From the IMG/VR virus record IMGVR_UViG_2636415610_000011: DNA of 10,389 bases. The stretch is one strand, 5' to 3'. A model generated the notes under the pieces. That model was not told the origin of the DNA. It ran no database searches and was given only the letters and a program-made list of their open reading frames with translations. Below are positions 2,436 to 10,389 of this stretch, piece by piece. Source of the DNA: a virus (taxonomy: Duplodnaviria > Heunggongvirae > Uroviricota > Caudoviricetes). How positions within the stretch are numbered: position 1 is the stretch's first letter; every line of letters begins with the position of its first letter. The translations under genes were made by a program, and so were the position numbers.

Positions 2436-2639
2436 ATGAACACCGACACTATTCCTACAAAAGGCTATATCAGACGCTTCCGCCTGGCTGAATTGCTGGG
2501 CGTTAGTGTATCCACCATCGACCGTAAAGTAAGAAACGGTTCACTACCACGTCCGGTAAAGCTGGGAGAAAAAATAACTGCGTTTGATGCGGTTGAGATT
2601 CACAACTGGCTGGCAGAACGCCGCGGGAAGGTGGCCTGA
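2436..2639 (+). CDS. alpA: AlpA/Vis-family small HTH transcriptional regulator / excisionase-like protein
   Basis: 67-aa ORF; IRRFRLAELLGVSVSTIDRKVRNGSLPRPVKLGEKITAFDAVEIHNWL is the characteristic AlpA (prophage CP4-57 regulator) / P4 Vis-like MerR-type HTH. Position downstream of a P4-type integrase is typical. Stop overlaps the next start (TGATG). Confidence 0.85.
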   Translation: MNTDTIPTKGYIRRFRLAELLGVSVSTIDRKVRNGSLPRPVKLGEKITAFDAVEIHNWLAERRGKVA

Positions 2640-3070
2640 TGGAAAAGAAAAACCGCCCATTACAGGCGGCTAATTCAGATATTCGCGTATCTGATGTTAC
2701 GCCCCTTACAAAATCCCTTCAAGAACCAAAGCGCACACCGAAAAAGCATCGTGCCAGAGTCTATATGCTGCGTACTGGTATAGAGGGATGGACAGAAAAT
2801 GACATTCTTCGCTACTGCCGTCTGTCTTCTGGTCGTAACTATGCAACAGAGTTAGAACGCCAGCTTGGAATCACTCTGGAGCGTATCGACGAAAAGAATC
2901 CTGATGGTATCGGAACACACCTTCGCTACCGTTTCTCCTGCCGTGGTGATGTTCTGAAAGTGATCACTCATGTTAACCATCTTGCGAACATAAATGATCA
3001 CAACGGACTTTCTCAGCAGGAAATTGCCGACATTCTGAAACTCTACCCGAACGCGTTTAACGCCGCCTAA
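2639..3070 (+). CDS. Hypothetical protein (143 aa), translationally coupled to alpA
   Basis: ATG 2639 overlaps the alpA stop; RBS GGAAGGTGG upstream. Basic N-terminus (KRTPKKHRAR). No family recognised. Confidence 0.7.
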   Translation: MEKKNRPLQAANSDIRVSDVTPLTKSLQEPKRTPKKHRARVYMLRTGIEGWTENDILRYCRLSSGRNYATELERQLGITLERIDEKNPDGIGTHLRYRFSCRGDVLKVITHVNHLANINDHNGLSQQEIADILKLYPNAFNAA

Positions 3071-3082
3071 CGGAGACTGAAA

Positions 3083-3916
3083 ATGAACATCGAAAAAAGC
3101 AGATTAATTTCTGAGGCCGCCCCTCATCTGAACGCCTCTCTGGGCACAATTAACGGTAATGAATTTGCCGCAATTGTCCCGGTTATTCCTGGTCATATCG
3201 GTGGGCGTGAAACCAATATTGTTAGCGCAAAAGCGTTACACAAAGCGTTGGGCGTGGGAAAAGACTTCTCTACATGGATCACTGATCGCATCTCTGAATA
3301 TGACTTCACCATTGGGCACGATTACTCAGTCCATAAAACAATTTCCCCAAATTTGGGGAAAAGCCCGAATGGCACGGCTTACAGCAAGATTAAGCACTCT
3401 GGCAGACCCGGCAAAGACTATCTGTTAAGTGTCGGAATGGCGAAAGAACTGGCAATGATCGAACGCAATGATCAGGGGCGCGCTATCCGCCGTTATTTCA
3501 TCCAGTGCGAGGAAGAATTACAGCGTAGCGTGCCTGAAATCGCCGCCCGCTATCGTCGCCAGCTAAAAGCCCGTATCAGTGCCGCAAACAACTTTAAGCC
3601 AATGTGCGATGCGCTGAATATGGCCCGTGCCGAGATGGGGAAAACGACGCAGCAACACCACTACACAAACGAGAGCAATATGATTTCTCGTATCGTTCTT
3701 GGTGGGCTAACTGCTAAGCAGTGGGCGCGGATAAATGGCTATTCTGGCGAACCTCGCGACCATATGAACGCAGAACAGCTTGAGCACCTCTCATATCTCG
3801 AAAGCACCAATATCACGTTAATTGATATGGGCATGGAATATGAGCAGCGCAAAGGAGAACTCACCCGCCTGTCGCAACGCTGGCTCGCTAAGCGTCTGGA
3901 GGCGGTCCATGTTTAA
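3083..3916 (+). CDS. Phage antirepressor-like protein (AntA/Rha/Bro-N-type N-terminal domain)
   Basis: 277-aa ORF with RBS GGAG (3072-3075). N-terminal region NIVSAKALHKALGVGKDFSTWITDRISEYDF...GRPGKDYLLSVGMAKELAMIERNDQGRAIRRYFIQCEEEL matches the conserved AntA/Rha-type antirepressor DNA-binding domain. C-terminal half not recognised. Confidence 0.8.
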   Translation: MNIEKSRLISEAAPHLNASLGTINGNEFAAIVPVIPGHIGGRETNIVSAKALHKALGVGKDFSTWITDRISEYDFTIGHDYSVHKTISPNLGKSPNGTAYSKIKHSGRPGKDYLLSVGMAKELAMIERNDQGRAIRRYFIQCEEELQRSVPEIAARYRRQLKARISAANNFKPMCDALNMARAEMGKTTQQHHYTNESNMISRIVLGGLTAKQWARINGYSGEPRDHMNAEQLEHLSYLESTNITLIDMGMEYEQRKGELTRLSQRWLAKRLEAVHV

Positions 3917-4091
3917 GCCGACAGGAACACCACAACCTCAAAAACGCTACAAAGATGCCCACGGAGCACTCGTTACTGTCGAAAGCGTGTCTCACAACCG
4001 AGTGACGTTTTATCGCGACGGGTATCAATCGCCATGCGTACAACCGCTGGCACGTTTCATGAAGGAGTTCGCGGAGGTTAACAAATGCTAA
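3909..4091 (+). CDS. Small hypothetical protein (60 aa), possibly DUF4222-like
   Basis: RBS GGAGG (3898-3902) 6 nt before ATG 3909; start overlaps the upstream stop by 8 nt (translational coupling). The ORF track's longer 3822 start lies inside the upstream gene and is rejected. Pattern YKDAHGALVTV...RVTFYRDGYQSPCVQPLARFMKEF resembles small DUF4222-type prophage proteins, from memory only. Confidence 0.6.
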   Translation: MFKPTGTPQPQKRYKDAHGALVTVESVSHNRVTFYRDGYQSPCVQPLARFMKEFAEVNKC

Positions 4092-5152
4092 CCGCCCAGA
4101 AGAAGACATTTTCACTGGCTGGTATGTCGCCAAAATCCAGCAATATGACAGCAAAGTCAGGCATTAATACAGCAGATACAAGCAAAGTTTATCATTTGCT
4201 GGTGGTAGGAGCGGATGCCTTAACTATGTCAGAAATTACGGTCGATGGTGTTAGCGTTGAGAAGGTCAGCGGCTGCGCCAGAGAATTTCTGGTCGTAGAT
4301 GGCTTTCTCTGCTCGCGTAGTGACTCCACAAAAACCTTCGTCCACGCGCGTGACGTTAACGAAATGAGCGCGATGTACTGTGCTTCTGGTTCTTCCAATA
4401 GTGAGTTTTCGGAGTCCATAAAAAAGAGCTTGCCGTTATGCGGCAACACGGTTTATGGTTATAAGGCACCTCATAAAACGGGTGCCGGGATTGGCGTCCT
4501 GGTAAATCGAATGGCGACATATGACGCGCCGAGCGTCTTTTTTTATGTCGTAGGTCTGACTCACCCATTTTTTGGGCGTTGGTGTATAATCCAGCGCCTT
4601 TGTCAATCAATGGTGGCTCAGGCAGGGGCTTCTTCGGAAGCGCCGGTATCCATTCGAGCCGGTTACGCCAACCCTGTCTGGGCTACCACCAGCGAAATTG
4701 GCGTTTCCGGTGGTAGCGTTACATGCTATCGAATGGAGGCTGCCACATGCTGGCTACTACCCCTACCCAAAAACCGCAATTTATCTGGATTATCGCCGCA
4801 GTTCGCCGCGATTGCCCGACAATTACCGCCAAAATTCATCATATTGCTGCCGAGTCTGAACGCGATGCTCGCCGTTCTCTGGTGCGCGATCACGTCTGCT
4901 TTTTTGCTGGTCGTATCCGCATGGAGGTGGCACATGATTAAAACCTACGATGTGCATATGGATCCCCTCGAACGCACAAGCCAGATCATCACACTGACAG
5001 AAGTGATTAACGACATTCTGGTGAGCAACTCTCCCTCACGAGACGAAAGACTGAAGGCGTTACTCGCGATATTGGATCTCGCCGTTCGTGACGTTCATTT
5101 CCTGCTGGAAGGTGGCGAAATGCCAGTAAAAACGGGGGAAACCAATGAATAA
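4085..5152 (+). CDS. Stop-free 355-codon frame; probably a composite: a roughly 222-aa gene (4085 to about 4753) that has lost its stop and reads through in frame into the 4934-5152 gene
   Basis: RBS GGAGG (4071-4075) and ATG 4085 coupled to the upstream stop (ATGCTAA). Codon usage read by eye looks coding from 4085 to about 4745 (G-rich first positions, few rare codons). The same frame over 4745-4933 is full of rare codons (CTA x3, TTA x3, GGA, CGA, ATA, AGG) while the -1 frame there has none. An automated gene caller would probably report the whole ORF as one hypothetical protein. Confidence 0.4.
4747..4941 (+). CDS. Small hypothetical protein (64 aa) in the -1 frame relative to the 4085 ORF
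   Basis: RBS GGAGG (4735-4739) 7 nt before ATG 4747. All codons are common enteric codons (CTG, CGC, CGT, ATC, CCG, GCC; no rare codons). Stop TAA (4939-4941) overlaps the next ATG (4934) in the same 8-nt coupling arrangement used elsewhere in this operon. Alternative start ATG 4723. Confidence 0.5.
   Translation: MLATTPTQKPQFIWIIAAVRRDCPTITAKIHHIAAESERDARRSLVRDHVCFFAGRIRMEVAHD
4934..5152 (+). CDS. Small hypothetical protein (72 aa)
   Basis: RBS GGAGGTGG (4923-4930) just upstream of ATG 4934; coupled to the upstream stop and to the downstream start (ATG 5145 / TAA 5150-5152). In frame with, and contained in, the 4085-5152 ORF. Confidence 0.45.
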   Translation: MIKTYDVHMDPLERTSQIITLTEVINDILVSNSPSRDERLKALLAILDLAVRDVHFLLEGGEMPVKTGETNE

Positions 5153-5339
5153 CTCAATTAATACCCCTCGCCTTACGTCCGCACTTCAATTAATCGAGCA
5201 AGCAGCGGCTGTCCTGGTTGCTGTCAGTCTTTCGGCTGAAGAAATGGACGCTACTGATGTCGTGGATGCGATTAAAGCGTGCTCATCTTTGGTTAACGAT
5301 GCCCGTGCAGAGCTGGTAATTCTTGGGGGTGAAAAATGA
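5145..5339 (+). CDS. Small hypothetical protein (64 aa)
   Basis: ATG 5145 overlaps the upstream stop by 8 nt; G-rich RBS GGGGGA (5134-5139). Ala/Leu-rich, helical-looking sequence. Confidence 0.65.
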   Translation: MNNSINTPRLTSALQLIEQAAAVLVAVSLSAEEMDATDVVDAIKACSSLVNDARAELVILGGEK

Positions 5340-5599
5340 ATATCAACTTAATTTATCGTCATCCGTGTGGGCTGGAAATTGAATCATTGCTGAGCCGTGA
5401 AGAGCCATATCCAGACACATTCACTCTTGCAGATCGCACGACTGAACGGCTTACCAGAGCGCGCACAGGTCTGGTTCATGTGATGAATGAGATTCTTCCA
5501 TCGGTGGGAGGGGAACAGGCGACAGTAATCACTAGCTGGCTACAAAAAGTTACCTCTCTGATAGATATCAGTTTAATCGATGCGGAGAGTGCGAAATGA
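5336..5599 (+). CDS. Small hypothetical protein (87 aa)
   Basis: ATGA start/stop overlap with the upstream gene (5336-5339); RBS GGGGGTG (5323-5329). Confidence 0.7.
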   Translation: MNINLIYRHPCGLEIESLLSREEPYPDTFTLADRTTERLTRARTGLVHVMNEILPSVGGEQATVITSWLQKVTSLIDISLIDAESAK

Positions 5600-5817
5600 C
5601 CAACATCCAGCTCATTGAAGCGCAATGTCGCATCGAACAGGTTCAGACTGTTTTAGGGTTCTGGCTTGAAGGGGCCAGCCCCAGCAACAGAGACAAGTTA
5701 ATGATTGGCGCGGTTATGTCACTGCTCAATGGCGTACCAGAAGCTATTCAGGAAGCAGACGAATTGTTGGGCAAATATGAGTTACAGAATCATTCAGGCG
5801 AGGCGAAACATGAATAA
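5596..5817 (+). CDS. Small hypothetical protein (73 aa)
   Basis: ATGA overlap with the upstream gene (5596-5599); RBS GGAGAG (5584-5589). Confidence 0.7.
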   Translation: MTNIQLIEAQCRIEQVQTVLGFWLEGASPSNRDKLMIGAVMSLLNGVPEAIQEADELLGKYELQNHSGEAKHE

Positions 5818-6412
5818 TTTCTTAACTTTCCATGCAGAAGCAACGCCTGACGGCGTAAACATCATGCACCGCAGCAACGATGGCATGACAGAACGCGTTG
5901 AGACCGTCTCATATATTGATGCCGTAAATCGTCTGGATGCCGGGGATTATGACGATAAACCAGATGAAGGCATGTCAATACATCTCGCTATAGCCGATGG
6001 CGGCAACCAGGGATATTTCGATTACACATCACAGCATAACGTCATTATGTGGAGATGGCTGATCGCAACAGTATTCATGCTGGAAATGAGAGAGGAAAAC
6101 GGCACTGTCAGCATCATTGATGATACTGGCAATCCTTCCGAAGTGGCTGTTTATTCCAACGGCATCGTCGCCATGCCGCTGTATCCAGTAGCAGAGCGCC
6201 TCGCTATGGCAAACAACATTGAGGGCGCGATGATAGAACGTTTTGGCATCGAGTCTGGCACAGAACGCGCCATCATTTTCTACAGAGCCATGATGGATGT
6301 GGAACAAGGAGCACTGACTCCATTTGGTCGTGAAACGCTTGCTGAACTTCACAACAGCTTTATAGCTGAACTGAATGAAAACGGCATGCCAGCGGAACCA
6401 GTGACGCACTGA
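5810..6412 (+). CDS. Hypothetical acidic protein (200 aa)
   Basis: ATG 5810 overlaps the upstream stop (ATGAATAA, stop at 5815-5817); RBS AGGCGAGG upstream. The ORF-track start at 5705 lies deep inside the previous gene in another frame and is rejected. Confidence 0.75.
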   Translation: MNNFLTFHAEATPDGVNIMHRSNDGMTERVETVSYIDAVNRLDAGDYDDKPDEGMSIHLAIADGGNQGYFDYTSQHNVIMWRWLIATVFMLEMREENGTVSIIDDTGNPSEVAVYSNGIVAMPLYPVAERLAMANNIEGAMIERFGIESGTERAIIFYRAMMDVEQGALTPFGRETLAELHNSFIAELNENGMPAEPVTH

Positions 6413-6422
6413 GGATGGAGCC

Positions 6423-6764
6423 ATGATTACTAAAAATTTCCGACTGAATGCGCTGGCAAATAAGTATGCGTCGGCACTGTATAACCACATTACCTCCACC
6501 AGCGGCGGGGACTATTTCATGGTTGATGCGGACGGCGAGGCCGTACGTGTGGAAATCGTCAATGGAGTAAAAGACGTTCGCAGCCTGATCGATAGCTACA
6601 CACTGGCAGCCATGAAAGTGTTCTACCCGCAGTGGGAAACCGTGGGGATCGAGCTTCTTGAGCGTTGCGTCACTAAGGACGGATTGACTGACGTCGGGCG
6701 TGAGATATGGCAAAGCATGGTTAATGACATGGGCGCAACTGTAGCGGGAGGTTCTCATGCGTGA
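6423..6764 (+). CDS. Hypothetical protein (113 aa)
   Basis: RBS GGATGGAG (6414-6421) immediately before ATG 6423, which lies 10 nt after the upstream stop. Confidence 0.75.
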   Translation: MITKNFRLNALANKYASALYNHITSTSGGDYFMVDADGEAVRVEIVNGVKDVRSLIDSYTLAAMKVFYPQWETVGIELLERCVTKDGLTDVGREIWQSMVNDMGATVAGGSHA

Positions 6765-7128
6765 AAATGCAGAAATGGCGCTTAGCTCCGCAATCGGAGA
6801 GCAGGTGGCAAAGATTGCTGGTGCTGTGTGGATTCATAACCTTCATTCTACTGGTGAAGAGAAAATGGCAATTCAGACGCCAGAGGGACGCACCATTACT
6901 ACATCTCTGAAGCCGTCAGATGTTTGTGATCTGATTTGCGCATTCATGTACCCAGCAATGAGGACTGTCCACAGCGATAAGTGGAAACTTGCGACAACCG
7001 CTGAATTTGATATGTGGCTAAACAATGATGGCATGCTGACTGATTACGGAATAACCAAGTGGCAGATGCTGGTTAGCCATATCGCAAACGCTATAGACCA
7101 CGTGGGGTACGGTGATGCGAAACATTGA
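6757..7128 (+). CDS. Hypothetical protein (123 aa), immediately upstream of and coupled to the primase-helicase
   Basis: ATG 6757 overlaps the upstream stop by 8 nt; its own stop (7126-7128) overlaps the primase start. Confidence 0.75.
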   Translation: MRENAEMALSSAIGEQVAKIAGAVWIHNLHSTGEEKMAIQTPEGRTITTSLKPSDVCDLICAFMYPAMRTVHSDKWKLATTAEFDMWLNNDGMLTDYGITKWQMLVSHIANAIDHVGYGDAKH

Positions 7129-9871
7129 TCTTATCCGTCAGGTTATCAGTGCGTCTGAAAACAACTGGCCTCATGTGCTGGGCTGCCTGAACATAAATGT
7201 CCCTGACTCTCCGCGCCGTCATGCTCCCTGCCCTGCATGTGGGGGCAAAGATCGATTCCGGTTCGATGACAACGGGCGCGGTAGCTTCATCTGTAATCAG
7301 TGCGGCGCTGGTGATGGGCTGGATTTAATTAAACGCGTAAATAACTGCGACACAACAGAGGCGGCGCTTCTTGCCGCTGATGTTCTGGGTATTGATTACC
7401 GGACAACGGAAACACCAGAAGCCACCAGCCAGAAACGGGAACAACTGGAAACCGAGCGCCAGCGACGCGAACAGGAGCGCCTGAAAAGGGCAGAGAAGGA
7501 CGAACAACAAAGACGGGATACGTTTTCCCGTCAGTTTGATGACATGCGCAGAAAGGCTGTAAACGGCAAATCTGATTATCTGGTTGCGAAAGGGGTAGGT
7601 GATTTTACATTCCCCGTGTTGCCCGATGGATCTCTGTTGCTGGCGCTGGTGGATAAATCCGGCGCAGTCACAGCAGCACAGACTATTACCTCACATGGTG
7701 AAAAAAGACTCCTGAGAGGTTCAGCAAAGCGGGGGGCATATCACGCCATAAACGCGCCAGAAACAACACAGAGCATCTTAATTACAGAAGGGCTGGCAAC
7801 GGCATTATCTGCCCATTTAATTCGTCCAGAGGCGCTGACAGTGGCGGCGATTGATGCCGGGAACCTGTTATATGTCGCCCAGGTACTGCGGGATAAATTT
7901 CCTTCAGCACAAATCATCATTGCTGCGGATAACGACCACAGCGAAGGAAGACAAAACACGGGGAGAATAGCAGCAGAAAAAGCAGCTTTATCTGTTTCTG
8001 GATGGGTGGCATTACCCCCGACAGATCACAAAGCAGACTGGAATGATTACCACCAAAAACACGGCATTAAATGCGCCACAGAAGCGTTCAATAAGTCAAT
8101 GTACCAACCACAGGGTAATGGCGTGAAACAGGAGCCACAGACCATTGAGGGAAGCGATTTTAAGGTTATGGATACCGACCCACTGAAACCAAGAATAGAA
8201 AGCCGCGAGGATGGTATTTATTGGGTATCTCCGAGAGCTGACAGCCAGAGTGGAGAAATCATCAATAACGAAAGCTGGTTATGTTCTCCGTTAAGCGTTA
8301 TCGGTACTGGCAGAGACGATAAAGACCAGTATCTCATTCTTCGCTGGCTGTCGTTTGGTTCTGAAACGCCGACAACCGCTGCCATTCCACTGGCTGATAT
8401 TGGTGAACGTGAAGGATGGCGCACACTTAAAGCTGGTGGGGTAAATGTCACGACCAAAAGCAGCCTCAGAGCAATACTGGCAGACTGGCTACAACGCAGT
8501 GGCTCTCGTGAATTGTGGCGTGTTGCTCATGCCACTGGCTGGCAATGCGGAGCGTACATCATGCCTGATGGGGAAATCATCGGAACACCTGAAAATCCTG
8601 TGCTGTTCAGCGGGAGAAGCTCAGCCGCAGCCGGATATACCGTCTCAGGGAGCGCGAAAAGCTGGCGTGATAACGTGGCGCGTCTGGCCTTTGGTAACTA
8701 TTCAATGATGACCGGGATCGGCGCAGCACTGGCAGCGCCATTGATTGGGCTGGTGGGCGCTGACGGGTTCGGCATTCATTTCTATGAGCAGTCGAGCGCA
8801 GGTAAGACCACCACGGCAAACGTGGCGAGCAGCTTATACGGCAACCCTGATTTACTGCGGCTGACGTGGTACGGAACCGCGCTGGGGCTGGCAAATGAGG
8901 CCGCCGCCCACAATGACGGACTAATGCCGCTTGATGAAGTTGGTCAGGGCGCTGATCCTGTCAGCGTTTCACAGTCTGCCTATGCGTTATTTAACGGTGT
9001 AGGGAAACTGCAAGGCGCTAAAGATGGTGGAAACCGGGATCTAAAACGCTGGCGTACAGTGGCAATCAGCACCGGAGAAATGGATTTAGAAACATTTATC
9101 GCTACTTCCGGGCGAAAAACCAAAGCCGGGCAACTGGTGCGACTGCTGAATATTCCGTTGAGTAAAGCAGTACGCTTTCACGATTACCAGAACGGAAAAC
9201 AGCACGCAGACGCACTGAAAGACGCTTACCAGCATCACCACGGCGCGTCCGGGCGTGAGTGGATTAAATGGCTGGCAGACCACCAGCAACAGGCTATTAA
9301 AACCGTTCGTGACTGCGAAAGCAGATGGAGAAGCCTGATCCCATCCGATTATGGTGAGCAGGTTCACCGTGTAGCCGCGCGATTTGCCATTCTGGAGGCC
9401 GCATTGTTGTTAGGCGAGGTTGTAACAGGCTGGGATGCTCAGACATGCCGTGATGCGATACAGCACAGCTATAACGCATGGTTGCGCGAGTTCGGCACAG
9501 GTAACAAAGAGCATCAGCAGATTATTGAACAAACGGAGGCATTTCTTAATGCCTATGGGCTTAGCCGTTTTGCACCATTTCCATACAGCCCGGCAGATTT
9601 GCCCATCAAAGATTTAGCCGGATACCGTCAGCGTGGAGAACATGACGAAAGCCCAATGATTTTCTACACATTCCCGGCCACATTTGAAAAGGAGATCGCA
9701 TGTGGTTTCAACGCAAAACAGTTTGCTGAAGTGTTGAAAAAAGCCGGGATGCTAACCCCACCAAACAGCGGTCGTGGATACCAAAGAAAATCACCACGTA
9801 TTCAGGGACGACAAATAAACGTTTATGTACTCAATTACCAGCCAGGAGATTATAACTCATCTGAAGAATGA
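7115..9871 (+). CDS. Primase-helicase of the phage P4 alpha type (N-terminal Zn-ribbon, Toprim primase core, C-terminal P-loop NTPase/helicase-like domain)
   Basis: About 918 aa. Zn-ribbon CPACGGKDRFRFDD...GSFICNQCG; Toprim signatures ITEGLATAL (conserved Glu) and IIIAADNDHSEG (DxD); Walker-A-like FYEQSSAGKTTTA in the C-terminal domain. ATG 7115 preferred; GTG 7112 (ORF-track start) is an alternative. Confidence 0.93.
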   Translation: MRNIDLIRQVISASENNWPHVLGCLNINVPDSPRRHAPCPACGGKDRFRFDDNGRGSFICNQCGAGDGLDLIKRVNNCDTTEAALLAADVLGIDYRTTETPEATSQKREQLETERQRREQERLKRAEKDEQQRRDTFSRQFDDMRRKAVNGKSDYLVAKGVGDFTFPVLPDGSLLLALVDKSGAVTAAQTITSHGEKRLLRGSAKRGAYHAINAPETTQSILITEGLATALSAHLIRPEALTVAAIDAGNLLYVAQVLRDKFPSAQIIIAADNDHSEGRQNTGRIAAEKAALSVSGWVALPPTDHKADWNDYHQKHGIKCATEAFNKSMYQPQGNGVKQEPQTIEGSDFKVMDTDPLKPRIESREDGIYWVSPRADSQSGEIINNESWLCSPLSVIGTGRDDKDQYLILRWLSFGSETPTTAAIPLADIGEREGWRTLKAGGVNVTTKSSLRAILADWLQRSGSRELWRVAHATGWQCGAYIMPDGEIIGTPENPVLFSGRSSAAAGYTVSGSAKSWRDNVARLAFGNYSMMTGIGAALAAPLIGLVGADGFGIHFYEQSSAGKTTTANVASSLYGNPDLLRLTWYGTALGLANEAAAHNDGLMPLDEVGQGADPVSVSQSAYALFNGVGKLQGAKDGGNRDLKRWRTVAISTGEMDLETFIATSGRKTKAGQLVRLLNIPLSKAVRFHDYQNGKQHADALKDAYQHHHGASGREWIKWLADHQQQAIKTVRDCESRWRSLIPSDYGEQVHRVAARFAILEAALLLGEVVTGWDAQTCRDAIQHSYNAWLREFGTGNKEHQQIIEQTEAFLNAYGLSRFAPFPYSPADLPIKDLAGYRQRGEHDESPMIFYTFPATFEKEIACGFNAKQFAEVLKKAGMLTPPNSGRGYQRKSPRIQGRQINVYVLNYQPGDYNSSEE

Positions 9872-9896
9872 GCTTCTTCATGTGCGTAGAAAAGGT

Positions 9897-10007
9897 GTTG
9901 GTTCAGTTGGTTCAGTTGGTTCAATTTGTAAAGAGTATTGTTTTATAAGGATTTTATTCTTTTTATTGAACCAACACTGAACCAACAACACGGTATTTTG
10001 AACCAAC
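9897..10007. repeat. Iteron array: putative replication origin of the island
   Basis: Three perfect tandem GTTGGTTCA (9897-9905, 9906-9914, 9915-9923), then a 43-bp strongly AT-rich tract (9924-9966), then three inverted copies TGAACCAAC (9967-9975, 9978-9986, 9999-10007) spaced 11 and 21 bp (helical phasing). Lies 26 bp downstream of the primase-helicase stop. Confidence 0.6.
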
Positions 10008-10098
10008 ACAATGTGACTGAATTGATGCGCACAACACCTGGCTGGCATCAGAGAGTGTTTTACGAGACTTTCGTAAAATCCTGTGTACAAGGGCGTGA

Positions 10099-10389
10099 TG
10101 AACCGCCCCGGGTTTCCTGGAGAGTGTTTTATCTGTGAACTCAGGCTGCCAGATCATCGTTTCCGATGGAAGCATAATAAGCTTTTTCTGCTTCTGCCGG
10201 TGGGATATGGCCCAGCCTTTCCAGCAATCGTCGATTGTTATACCAGTCCACCCACGTGAGTGTGGCCAGCTCCACTTCTGTCCGGTTTTTCCAGCTCTTA
10301 CGGTGTATTACCTCCGCTTTGTAAAGGCCATTGATGCTCTCCGCCATCGCGTTGTCATACGAGTCACCAGTACTTCCTGTTGATGCCAG
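10099..10389 (-). mobile_element. IS3-family insertion sequence terminus (IS629/IS1203-like), partial, continues beyond the window
   Basis: Terminal sequence TGAACCGCCCCGGG... begins at 10099 (5'-TG end typical of IS3 family) and precedes the 3' end of an rve-type transposase on the - strand. Assignment to IS629 is from memory of its terminal sequence, not a search. Confidence 0.8.
10141..10389 (-). CDS. IS3-family transposase (OrfB, DDE/rve integrase core), C-terminal fragment; 5' end outside window
   Basis: Reverse-strand translation ...LASTGSTGDSYDNAMAESINGLYKAEVIHRKSWKNRTEVELATLTWVDWYNNRRLLERLGHIPPAEAEKAYY... contains the conserved rve C-terminal motif (DSYDNAMAES). Stop at 10141-10143; the frame is open to the window edge. 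Confidence 0.85.
   Translation of the reverse strand: MASTGSTGDSYDNAMAESINGLYKAEVIHRKSWKNRTEVELATLTWVDWYNNRRLLERLGHIPPAEAEKAYYASIGNDDLAA

Follow-up and report, generated by a model that had tools for sequence, protein, structure and literature searches.

The left operon of satellite phage P4 comprises the seqA leader, the CI RNA, eta/kil, epsilon, ORF151, cnr, and alpha. In the immI region of phages P1 and P7 (c4, icd, and ant1/ant2), a C4-family RNA precedes an Icd-family first cistron, the ribosome-binding site of which is the downstream target of the RNA; a second C4 target lies upstream, and the downstream genes are translationally coupled to icd. Both RNase P processing and Rho polarity have been established for P1. 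Lambdoid early-left regions also carry kil-type division inhibitors.

A third point of reference is provided by the EcCIMP1-type PICIs of Pick, Stadel and Raivio 2025 (PMC11773190), together with the zone scheme of PMC10111431; the island family and its alpA control are described in these two papers. The excision, replication, and packaging of EcCIMP1, for which proA was named as a flank, were demonstrated to be induced by the helper Kapi1 (PMC11773190). C4 and isrK matches in the “Bro zones” of PICIs have already been noted (PMC10111431). The ORFs between Ash and the primase were not analysed in either paper, and neither described the covariation of loop, leader, and ribosome-binding site, the pairing of O6 with O7, or the paralogy of O7 and O8 presented below.

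The island and its early block

The window, being the whole stretch of 10,389 nucleotides that was analysed, shares int, alpA, an antirepressor, an Ash-family ORF, small hypotheticals, and a primase with EcCIMP1-type PICIs. The co-directional backbone (int, alpA, Bro-type/Ash genes, and primase) lacks a complete set of phage morphogenesis genes and is that of a Gram-negative PICI (about 10–15 kb), and the island is of the EcCIMP1 type. Strain MS1494 carries the window-type backbone inserted next to proA, and the AlpA-type protein is related to ORF88 of P4. In full-length relatives, the primase is followed by DUF2824 and P22 gp7/injection (P22-type ejection) genes; in the window copy, an IS3 fragment interrupts the late zone behind the primase. 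Assignment to the P4-like satellites was rejected, as no ORF resembles epsilon and the window contains no psu, delta, or sid, which are absent from its relatives as well. Matches to part of the block region occur in approximately 1,180 of the 5,426 complete genomes of E. coli. The features to be discussed are as follows.

4085–5152, + strand: long eta/“ash”-type ORF, 355 aa; Pfam Phage_ASH matches residues 124–232 (nt 4454–4781)
4466–4543, + strand: isrK-like leader; Rfam RF01394, 67.1 bits vs a gathering score of 50
4606–4693, + strand: C4 / P4-CI-type antisense immunity RNA; Rfam RF01695, 79.5 bits vs a gathering score of 45, full-length
4727–4746, + strand: putative downstream C4 target (seqC / a2b2 equivalent), from loop complementarity and covariation
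4747–4941, + strand: O1, 64 aa, basic (pI 9.5), Icd/Kil-type
4934–5152, + strand: O2, 72 aa, acidic (pI 4.7), variable middle set
5145–5339, + strand: O3, 64 aa, acidic (pI 4.2), variable set
5336–5599, + strand: O4, 87 aa, acidic (pI 5.0), commonest in the variable set
5596–5817, + strand: O5, 73 aa, acidic (pI 4.7), variable set
5810–6412, + strand: O6, 200 aa, net charge -21 (pI 4.35), first of the O6-O7 pair
6423–6764, + strand: O7, 113 aa, second of the O6-O7 pair
6757–7128, + strand: O8, 123 aa, O7 paralogue between O7 and the primase
7115–9871, + strand: primase-helicase, Zn_Ribbon_Prim + Toprim_3 + DUF927 (Pfam), phrog_1139, last cistron of the operon

The first-pass annotation had described eight ORFs of 64–200 aa running in one direction, each with its own ribosome-binding site, and ending in the primase gene, and all of this was borne out: O1–O8 occupy 4747–7128 on the + strand, with a GGAG/GGGG-type Shine-Dalgarno sequence before every start. 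The overlaps of 4–8 nt that it had reported hold for six of the eight junctions, being 8 nt at O1/O2, O2/O3, O5/O6, and O7/O8 and 4 nt at O3/O4 and O4/O5; O6 and O7 are instead separated by a gap of 10 nt, and the last 14 nt (ATG 7115) or 17 nt (GTG 7112) of O8 lie within the primase gene. No terminator-like or promoter-like site was found on the + strand of 4747–7128 by a terminator scan and a promoter scan, the latter being a crude consensus that weak or activator-dependent promoters inside the block would escape. As a whole, the block is a typical satellite “early” region with nothing exceptional about it.

The proposed C4 RNA switch and the Icd-type first cistron

Two RNA elements precede O1. 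The isrK-like leader holds the upstream, seqA-like C4 target, TCGAATGG at 4507–4514 (8-mer search), and an intrinsic terminator consisting of a stem at 4523–4537 followed by T7 (terminator scan). The loop of the C4 RNA, CCATTCGA at 4650–4657, is the equivalent of seqB, and ATCGAATGGAGG overlaps the Shine-Dalgarno sequence of O1, 10 nt 5' of the O1 ATG. Three copies of TCGAATGG or its complement are present in the window vs 0.41 expected: one within the leader, one within the C4 loop, and one at the Shine-Dalgarno sequence of O1. Among seven aligned elements, P4 included, no two share a C4 loop sequence, and each loop is matched at both targets; in every aligned island the complement of its own C4 loop adjoins an invariant GGAGGCTGCC and ATG. 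Nine of 13 further islands have an exact complement of ≥7 nt both ~99 nt 5' of C4 and 10–11 nt before the icd ATG, and the three-way match of loop, leader, and ribosome-binding site co-varies over at least ten immunity types with different loop sequences. With its conserved RNA structure and two co-varying loop targets, the element is, judged by sequence, an antisense RNA of the C4 / P4-CI type. Of 18 related islands scanned in other genera, 12 have it ahead of the block, with isrK alongside in all but one of these; a C4 match was absent from the other six, hence the block can be subject to different control as well.

None of the eight products had been recognised in the first-pass annotation, which does not hold for O1. 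This protein matches NCBIfam NF033153 (Icd family; E 3.7e-20, 71.7 bits vs a cutoff of 25) and is 43% identical over 58 aa to the P4 kil region. O1 is a true homologue of the P4 kil region and the first cistron 3' of the C4-family RNA, with its ribosome-binding site within the target of that RNA, and is predicted to be a host cell-division inhibitor of the Icd/Kil type. The host-takeover function that had been expected of the block is supported at its head by this homology.

The start of the long ash-type ORF overlaps the stop of a DUF4222 gene, and the ORF passes through both RNA elements (isrK-like and C4) and, in a different frame, O1, sharing its frame with O2. It stays open in all window-type islands despite divergence of up to 27% in the immunity region. 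In PT62, SH19PTE6, and P4, the long ash/eta-type ORF is in frame with icd/kil instead. Translation of this ORF would, by analogy, work as an anti-termination device like P4 eta (PMC10111431). In strain cq9 (99.9% identical), PGAP omits O1 and O2 and calls a 355-aa “ash family protein” at 4085–5152, an annotation problem in that the call spans two RNA genes and hides the Icd-like gene and O2 in many genomes.

We favour, at a probability of about 55%, the reading that the block forms the distal portion, under immunity control, of a single early operon of an EcCIMP1-type PICI, with the control and effector roles proposed here. In the quiescent island, a short transcript would end at the isrK-like terminator and yield the C4 RNA, the loop of which would pair with the leader and with the O1 ribosome-binding site. 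The resulting block of O1 translation should silence the whole chain because O1–O8 and the primase are linked by 4–8-nt overlaps and neither an internal terminator nor a recognisable promoter intervenes; the route would be lost translational coupling together with transcriptional polarity, as in P1 c4-icd-ant and P4 CI-kil-alpha. Upon induction of alpA by the helper phage, upstream transcripts would be translated through the long eta-like ORF, which would override termination and allow all cistrons to be made along with the primase. We infer polarity, C4 processing, and the eta-type override by analogy.

The comparison with P4 drawn in the first-pass annotation, where kil and epsilon lie ahead of alpha, stands in part. 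In both elements the isrK-like leader is followed by the C4-family RNA, then by the kil-type ORF, the small ORFs, and the Zn-ribbon/Toprim primase; the geometry of the loop/leader/ribosome-binding-site complementarity is also the same, and the kil homologue is present. On the other hand, homologues of epsilon, ORF151, and cnr are absent here, seven ORFs rather than three lie between kil and the primase, and the island is an EcCIMP1-type PICI. The helicase portion of this primase belongs to DUF927 and is not of the P4 type; the N-terminal 346 aa are common to islands in which the C-terminal helicase part is DUF5906 or P4-family. The arrangement described above for P1/P7 immI recurs here (C4-family RNA, Icd-family first cistron bearing the downstream target, second target upstream, and presumably coupled downstream genes) with a different cargo, the primase and seven ORFs rather than the Ant antirepressor, and the AntA-family gene is found on the 5' side of the RNA.

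Given that control of both P1 icd-ant and P4 eta/kil hinges on coupled translation (PMC10111431), the small ORFs might be mostly non-functional filler, with the act of translation carrying ribosomes and transcription to the primase and the products being unimportant. Their highly mosaic content, the tolerance of deletion fusions, and a long eta-like ORF kept open in either of two frames would all fit. We nevertheless consider this very improbable in view of the purifying selection seen at the protein level, pN/pS being 0.24–0.36 for O1, O4, O6, and O7 wherever relatives have diverged enough (O1, 0.28–0.34; O4, 0.33 vs PT62; O6, 0.30–0.33). O6 and O7 are moreover conserved at 30–70% identity throughout Enterobacterales and also in phages whose operons are laid out differently, and O7 has a confident, well-packed predicted fold. 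Protein-level homologues in other genera were found for O2 (39–48% identity, likewise directly after icd in Pluralibacter, Symbiopectobacterium, and Buttiauxella islands), O3 (62%, in an Enterobacter island), O5 (34–49%), and O8 (52–71%). O1–O8 are best regarded as real genes, conserved at the protein level.

Candidate effectors downstream of O1

The structure and remote-homology searches that the first-pass annotation had suggested disclosed the family of O1 and left O2–O8 without a family of assigned function, with zero matches in Pfam, NCBIfam, PADLOC, or PDB. Only chance-level matches (E ≥ 0.005) were obtained for O1–O8 against the PADLOC-DB defence models. No match to a structural or housekeeping family was obtained for any of the eight products, and every one of them is conserved in related elements, neither outcome contradicting the first-pass reading. 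O2–O8 are all acidic (pI 4.2–5.6), and the median pI is 5.2 across 134 block ORFs, some Icd ORFs included. We infer the biochemical roles of O2–O8 from charge, size, mosaicism, and context: most likely, they act by binding host, helper, or defence proteins in the induced state, and in our view they are neither DNA binders nor obligatory replication factors.

O2–O5 are drawn from a mosaic pool of ~18 small families, and the small-ORF set varies among islands sharing one backbone; in SH19PTE6, one deletion has fused two small ORFs and removed O6. The O4 family has 17 ORFs and the O5 family 13 members across 24 islands. O5 matches phrog_20558 (E 2.9e-9), the function of which is unassigned, and displays weak profile similarity to other ~65-aa families. 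It is proposed that O2–O5 are interchangeable members of a small acidic protein pool.

The position of O2 directly after the kil-type gene is that of epsilon in P4, and one or more of O2–O8 could be conceived of as an epsilon analogue, i.e., an antirepressor derepressing the helper prophage; such analogues need not share sequence, and small acidic proteins are plausible repressor binders. This role is decidedly unlikely in our estimation. Besides the absence of sequence similarity to epsilon, an AntA-family antirepressor is already present at 3083–3916, outside the block and upstream of the immunity region, and is itself a candidate helper-derepression gene; temperate phages themselves carry O6 and O7, and EcCIMP1 changed neither helper CI expression nor the titre of released phage (PMC11773190).

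The O6-O7 pair is kept in ~30 of 43 loci, before the primase in PICIs and also in the early-left operons of temperate phages. O6 matches phrog_1515 (E 1e-47), and its relatives form 550 clusters (123 representatives at 50% identity); a Pfam search of 53 diverse O6 members returned zero matches. Homologues of O6 are found in the early-left operons of phiP27, Stx phages, phi467, and Klebsiella phages. In these pL-type regions (phiP27 L06, phi467, and Stx), homologues of O6 (30–36%) and O7 (60%) adjoin Bro-N, ORF6N, pRha, or KilA-N genes, and in prophages the pair sits near int, beside Bro-type genes and far from replication genes. Unlike in the island, O6 and O7 are there free of C4 control (two such loci have no C4) and do not lie beside a primase. 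The occurrence of both genes in ordinary temperate phages argues against a satellite-specific helper-manipulation role, and we propose that O6-O7 is a two-gene module common to satellites and the early-left operons of temperate phages. Structure prediction was poor for O6 (pLDDT 52). The model of O7 consists of a long helix, then a beta-hairpin, then a three-helix bundle, and yielded no functional clue since, confident as it is, it had no match among solved structures or predicted viral structures.

O7 and O8 are 23% identical (BLASTP, E 4e-5; shuffle z 8.8), making O8, at the sequence level, a paralogue (duplicate) of O7; its distribution is narrow, with only 21 clusters. The primase start is overlapped by an O7/O8-family gene in more than 20 islands. 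In most related islands this gene is O7, the end of which meets or overlaps the start of the primase in 21 islands spanning many genera, and in Citrobacter and Serratia islands an O8 homologue, not O7, lies directly 5' of the primase. Such overlap would entail translational coupling with the primase. Coupled with the facts that P4 Cnr is likewise directly upstream of alpha and that phi467, which has O6 and O7 homologues, also encodes a Zn-ribbon primase, this location would suit O6, O7, and O8 as replication accessories of the primase-helicase, be it a loader, an origin factor, or a Cnr-like copy-number regulator. We hold this to be unlikely, however, as in MS1494 a DUF927 primase of 99.5% identity follows O6 directly, O7 and O8 being absent, and PA45B and ACN001 likewise do without both. 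The prophage location of O6-O7, near int and away from replication genes, also speaks against it, as does phiP27, which has an O6 homologue yet DnaC/DnaB-type replication genes. The proteins are acidic, and profile comparison revealed no similarity to P4 Cnr or ORF151 (O7/O8 profile against P4 ORF106 [Cnr, DUF5375], probability 0.4%; Pfam likewise empty).

A bolder reading, which we rate as less likely than not, is that O6-O7 (with O8 as a duplicate of O7) is a hitherto undescribed two-protein effector module of PICIs and temperate phages, which would always travel with Bro-type genes and would neutralise a host or defence function at lytic onset. The variable O2–O5 positions would then be filled from a rapidly diversifying superfamily of acidic helical hairpins, each ~65 aa long, that are caught up in an arms race and might inhibit, for instance, defence systems or helper proteins.

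Significance for satellites of Enterobacterales

On the reading favoured here, a widespread class of E. coli/Enterobacterales satellites would use the antisense-RNA switch of P1 and P4, which would gate a whole coupled gene chain, from the cell-division inhibitor to the replication primase. Many immunity specificities appear to have evolved via compensatory change at three sites. O6-O7, O8, and the small acidic families are conserved, uncharacterised early proteins that satellites have in common with temperate phages and, as such, reasonable candidates for host-takeover or counter-defence screens.

A coupled gene chain behind an isrK and C4 leader

The eight small ORFs (O1 to O8) that the first-pass annotation had described as an operon ahead of the primase gene were found exactly where it had placed them. 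Neighbouring cistrons are tightly joined: the junctions from O1/O2 to O5/O6 overlap by 8, 8, 4, 4 and 8 nt, O6 and O7 are separated by a 10-nt gap, O7 and O8 overlap by 8 nt, and O8 extends 14-17 nt past the primase start. Each of the eight starts is preceded by a Shine-Dalgarno-like run, and a consensus scan of the + strand detected no terminator-like or promoter-like site within the block.

Elements of the leader and of the eight-ORF block (window positions)
4466-4543, isrK-family element (Rfam, 67.1 bits; gathering score 50)
4507-4514, copy of TCGAATGG in the leader
4523-4537, stem, with seven T after it, of the intrinsic terminator that closes the isrK-like element
4606-4693, C4 antisense RNA (Rfam, 79.5 bits; gathering score 45)
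4650-4657, CCATTCGA in the C4 loop, complement of TCGAATGG
4729-4736, copy of TCGAATGG located 10 nt before the O1 ATG and continuous with the GGAGG of the ribosome-binding site
4747-4941, + strand, O1, 64 aa
4934-5152, + strand, O2, 72 aa
5145-5339, + strand, O3, 64 aa
5336-5599, + strand, O4, 87 aa
5596-5817, + strand, O5, 73 aa
5810-6412, + strand, O6, 200 aa
6423-6764, + strand, O7, 113 aa
6757-7128, + strand, O8, 123 aa

Where related islands have diverged sufficiently, most substitutions fall on third codon positions. The pN/pS ratio was 0.28-0.34 for O1, 0.33 for O4, 0.30-0.33 for O6 and 0.24-0.36 for O7, the estimate being limited to these four because the E. coli copies of O2, O3, O5 and O8 are too alike; for the latter, protein homologues at the same position in other genera share 39-48% (O2), 62% (O3), 34-49% (O5) and 52-71% (O8) identity. 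All eight ORFs were accepted as coding on this comparative evidence, and the proposal that the small ORFs are simply "translated filler" is considered less likely.

O1, the only basic product among the eight, belongs to the Icd-like family (NCBIfam NF033153, 71.7 bits; cutoff 25) and shares 43% identity with the P4 kil region, so the kil analogy first drawn for the whole block is literally true for this ORF. The "transcriptional repressor" label carried by its PHROG match was set aside, as it derives from an old P4 "cI protein" annotation.

An isrK-like element and a C4 RNA directly precede O1, in the identical order seen in phage P4 ahead of the kil/epsilon/alpha operon. The window contains three instances of the 8-mer TCGAATGG or its complement (0.41 expected): one in the leader, one in the C4 loop and one at the O1 ribosome-binding site. 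When the immunity regions of the window, five other E. coli islands and P4 were aligned, the seven elements displayed seven different C4 loops, each with a matching complement at both targets, the downstream one adjoining an invariant GGAGGCTGCC..ATG. Nine of 13 further islands from other genera likewise have exact complements of 7 nt or more at both places. This covariation across three sites argues strongly for a functional RNA switch that has the beginning of the eight-ORF chain as its downstream target. The C4 RNA lies ahead of the block in 12 of the 18 related islands scanned, accompanied by isrK in all except one (L048). Tiling of C4 against the window with RNAduplex was dominated by self-matches and hence uninformative, and the exact-complement and alignment analysis was used instead. 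An extended -10-like element, TGTATAAT (4583-4590), lies about 15 nt 5' of the C4 start; it is kept in the island of strain MS1494 and reads TTATAAT in that of HB37, and C4 may have its own promoter besides being processed from the leader transcript.

The same region is annotated by PGAP in the 99.9%-identical strain cq9 as a 355-aa "ash family protein" (4085-5152), whose match to Pfam Phage_ASH, residues 124-232, is the translated isrK and C4 region. The annotated ORF crosses the two RNA genes and masks the Icd-like gene and O2 in many genomes. An ORF of the same sort, eta, exists in P4, where kil is its in-frame C-terminal part and where translation of eta from upstream transcripts overrides the CI-dependent termination (PMC10111431). 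A 2-nt difference before the ATG places the long ORF of the window in the O2 frame rather than the O1 frame, whereas in the islands of PT62 and SH19PTE6, as in P4, it lies in the icd/kil frame. The long ORF is open in all window-type islands despite divergence of the immunity region of up to 27%, a pattern consistent with the act of translating it mattering in itself.

The island and its relatives

On the basis of ORF calls and Rfam and Pfam annotation, the window is a single co-directional island.

Remaining features of the island (window positions)
1-1260, integrase
1269-1335, int-alpA RNA motif in the gap that follows the integrase gene (RF02996, 60.6 bits)
1356-2321, low-GC cargo ORF, 321 aa (GC 0.35-0.40)
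2436-2639, AlpA-type regulator
2639-3070, 143-aa ORF
3083-3916, AntA-family antirepressor
3909-4091, DUF4222 gene
7115-9871, Zn-ribbon/Toprim/DUF927 primase
about 10141-10347, - strand, IS3-family transposase fragment

Full-length relatives carry DUF2824 and P22-type ejection genes downstream of the primase, and some a PerC-like gene too; the island is of the EcCIMP1 type of Gram-negative phage-inducible chromosomal island (PICI). In the case of EcCIMP1 itself, it has been demonstrated that excision depends on a helper, that the helper phage Kapi1 transfers the island and that alpA exerts control (PMC11773190). The island of the window lacks psu, delta, sid and epsilon and so does not count as a P4-like satellite, being instead a PICI equipped with the P4/P1 RNA switch, an occurrence already noted for PICIs in general terms (PMC10111431). 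The region 4400-7200 is partially matched in 1,182 of 5,426 E. coli genomes and at least 80% covered in 253, and the island backbone is also present across the Enterobacterales.

The IS3 fragment cuts the island 3' of the primase (9872-10389), where relatives carry DUF2824 and P22 gp7/gp20/gp16-like ejection genes, and because of this truncation the copy in the window is probably not transferable. Within the primase gene, the N-terminal 346 aa (Zn ribbon and Toprim) are conserved at 71-85% identity across the window and five related islands (L003, L004, L005, L008 and L009), and the C-terminal helicase part swaps between DUF927, DUF5906 and P4-family types, which marks a recombination joint within the gene.

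Related islands of other genera, at least 12 of them, carry the int-alpA RNA motif as well. The slot between int and alpA varies in content among relatives (DUF6387, other hypotheticals or nothing), and in the window its ORF gave a weak PADLOC match to PDC-S31 (E 0.002); the slot looks like a site for cargo or possibly a defence hotspot. Enterobacterial-type PICI or prophage sequence was also encountered in assemblies labelled Pseudomonas lundensis I31 and Chryseobacterium sp. 18061 (L020 and L022, the integrase of L022 being 90% identical to that of the window) and in "Elizabethkingia phage EKP1" (OM284015.1), records that are likely contaminated or mislabelled.

Mosaic middle and the O6-O7 pair

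Comparison of the block across 24 islands revealed a conserved frame, consisting of an Icd-type first cistron and of O6 then O7 directly ahead of the primase, around a mosaic middle of some 18 families of mostly acidic proteins, mostly of 55-100 aa, of which O2-O5 represent four. Gene-by-gene comparison bore out conservation of O2-O8 in related elements. The islands of MS1494, PA45B and ACN001 are without O7 and O8, even though the MS1494 primase is 99.5% identical; PT62 possesses a different small-ORF set; and in SH19PTE6 one deletion fused two small ORFs and eliminated O6. A 68-aa fusion ORF in L005 (6201-6407) joins the 59-aa post-icd gene of PT62 to the C-terminal half of an O4-like gene, O6 being lost in the same event. 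These comparisons are evidence that the small-ORF genes are dispensable for the island backbone.

Position just before the primase supports a primase-associated role for O7 and O8, the main rival reading, and in Citrobacter and Serratia islands the rare O8 (21 clusters) takes the place of O7 as the gene preceding the primase. Against such a role stand the islands without either gene, the absence of similarity to Cnr and the occurrence of O7 in prophages. Among 43 loci retrieved by an O7-seeded search, O7 abuts the primase in a PICI backbone in 21, and in about 20, from Xenorhabdus, Yersinia, Rahnella, Trabulsiella and Kosakonia, it lies in a prophage-like early-left region with no adjoining primase, 13 of these having an opposite-strand integrase 1-3 kb downstream. 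In 30 of the 43 loci the gene immediately upstream of O7 is O6, and in two more O6 is a single gene removed; where the setting is a prophage, genes of the Bro network lie next to them (ORF6N, pRha, Bro-N and KilA-N). Homologues of O6 occur in phiP27, Stx phages, Klebsiella phages and phi467. The notion that every phage carrying O6/O7 has a Toprim primase was rejected, as one is present in phi467 and absent from phiP27, whose replication genes are of the DnaC/DnaB type. O6 and O7 therefore form a conserved pair whose occurrence does not depend on the primase.

When O1-O8 were compared with the families of Pfam, PHROGs, NCBIfam and PADLOC, a named family emerged for O1 only: O2-O8 had no significant match in Pfam, NCBIfam or PADLOC, and the PHROG matches of O5, O6 and O7 are families of unknown function. 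Profiles of O6 and of O7/O8 matched no PDB sequence, the search for domain fusions among longer O6/O7/O8 relatives was uninformative (a 2,073-aa candidate proved to be an RTX/VWA repeat protein matched by composition), and a literature search with the RefSeq protein accessions of O3-O8 retrieved no paper. The AlphaFold2 model of O6, built from a 36-sequence alignment, was unusable for a fold search (pLDDT 52). By hhalign, the C-terminal half of O6 (residues 99-184, 6104-6361) aligned with O7 residues 30-103 (E 0.002, probability 14%), taking in nearly the whole O7 core and a common "G-LT-x-x-G-R-E" turn, and the order of secondary-structure elements agrees between the O6 and O7 models. This is only suggestive of an O7-like domain in O6; one domain may be common to O6, O7 and O8.

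Recent mutual paralogy of O2-O5 was not adopted as a claim, pairwise z-scores being low and profile comparisons marginal (best P 1.8e-4). The acidic families of about 65 aa (O5, O3, g6, g11 and g12), found in the window at 5145-5817 and in the variable middle of L011-L048, have the appearance of a helix-loop-helix hairpin. Profile comparisons link them weakly, with O5 at the centre (P 1.8e-4 to 6e-3), and together they may constitute a single superfamily undergoing diversification, of which an island can carry as many as four or five copies.

Proposed control and role of the operon

The sequence directly supports an upstream terminator, a single coupled chain that begins with O1 and finishes with the primase, and an antisense RNA with a loop matching both the leader and the O1 ribosome-binding site. 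By analogy with P1 c4-icd-ant and P4 CI-kil-alpha, the RNA would block translation of O1 in the quiescent island and the block would spread down the coupled chain through polarity; helper-induced expression of alpA would then lead to translation of the eta-like ORF and override the block.

The first-pass expectation of helper manipulation found no specific support. O2-O8 showed no similarity to P4 epsilon, ORF151, ORF106/Cnr or ORF88 by BLASTP and hhalign, and that one of them serves as an epsilon-like helper derepressor is judged less likely. The favoured reading is that O2-O8 are accessory, protein-binding early functions directed against host, helper or defence targets, given their mosaicism, their dispensability for the backbone, their acidity (pI 4.2-5.6 throughout, with a net charge of -21 for O6), their co-expression with a division inhibitor and their occurrence in phage early-left regions. 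The arrangement is a C4-RNA-gated early operon in an EcCIMP1-type PICI, and its modest interest lies in the uncharacterised O6-O7/O8 module and in the diversifying small acidic ORFs.
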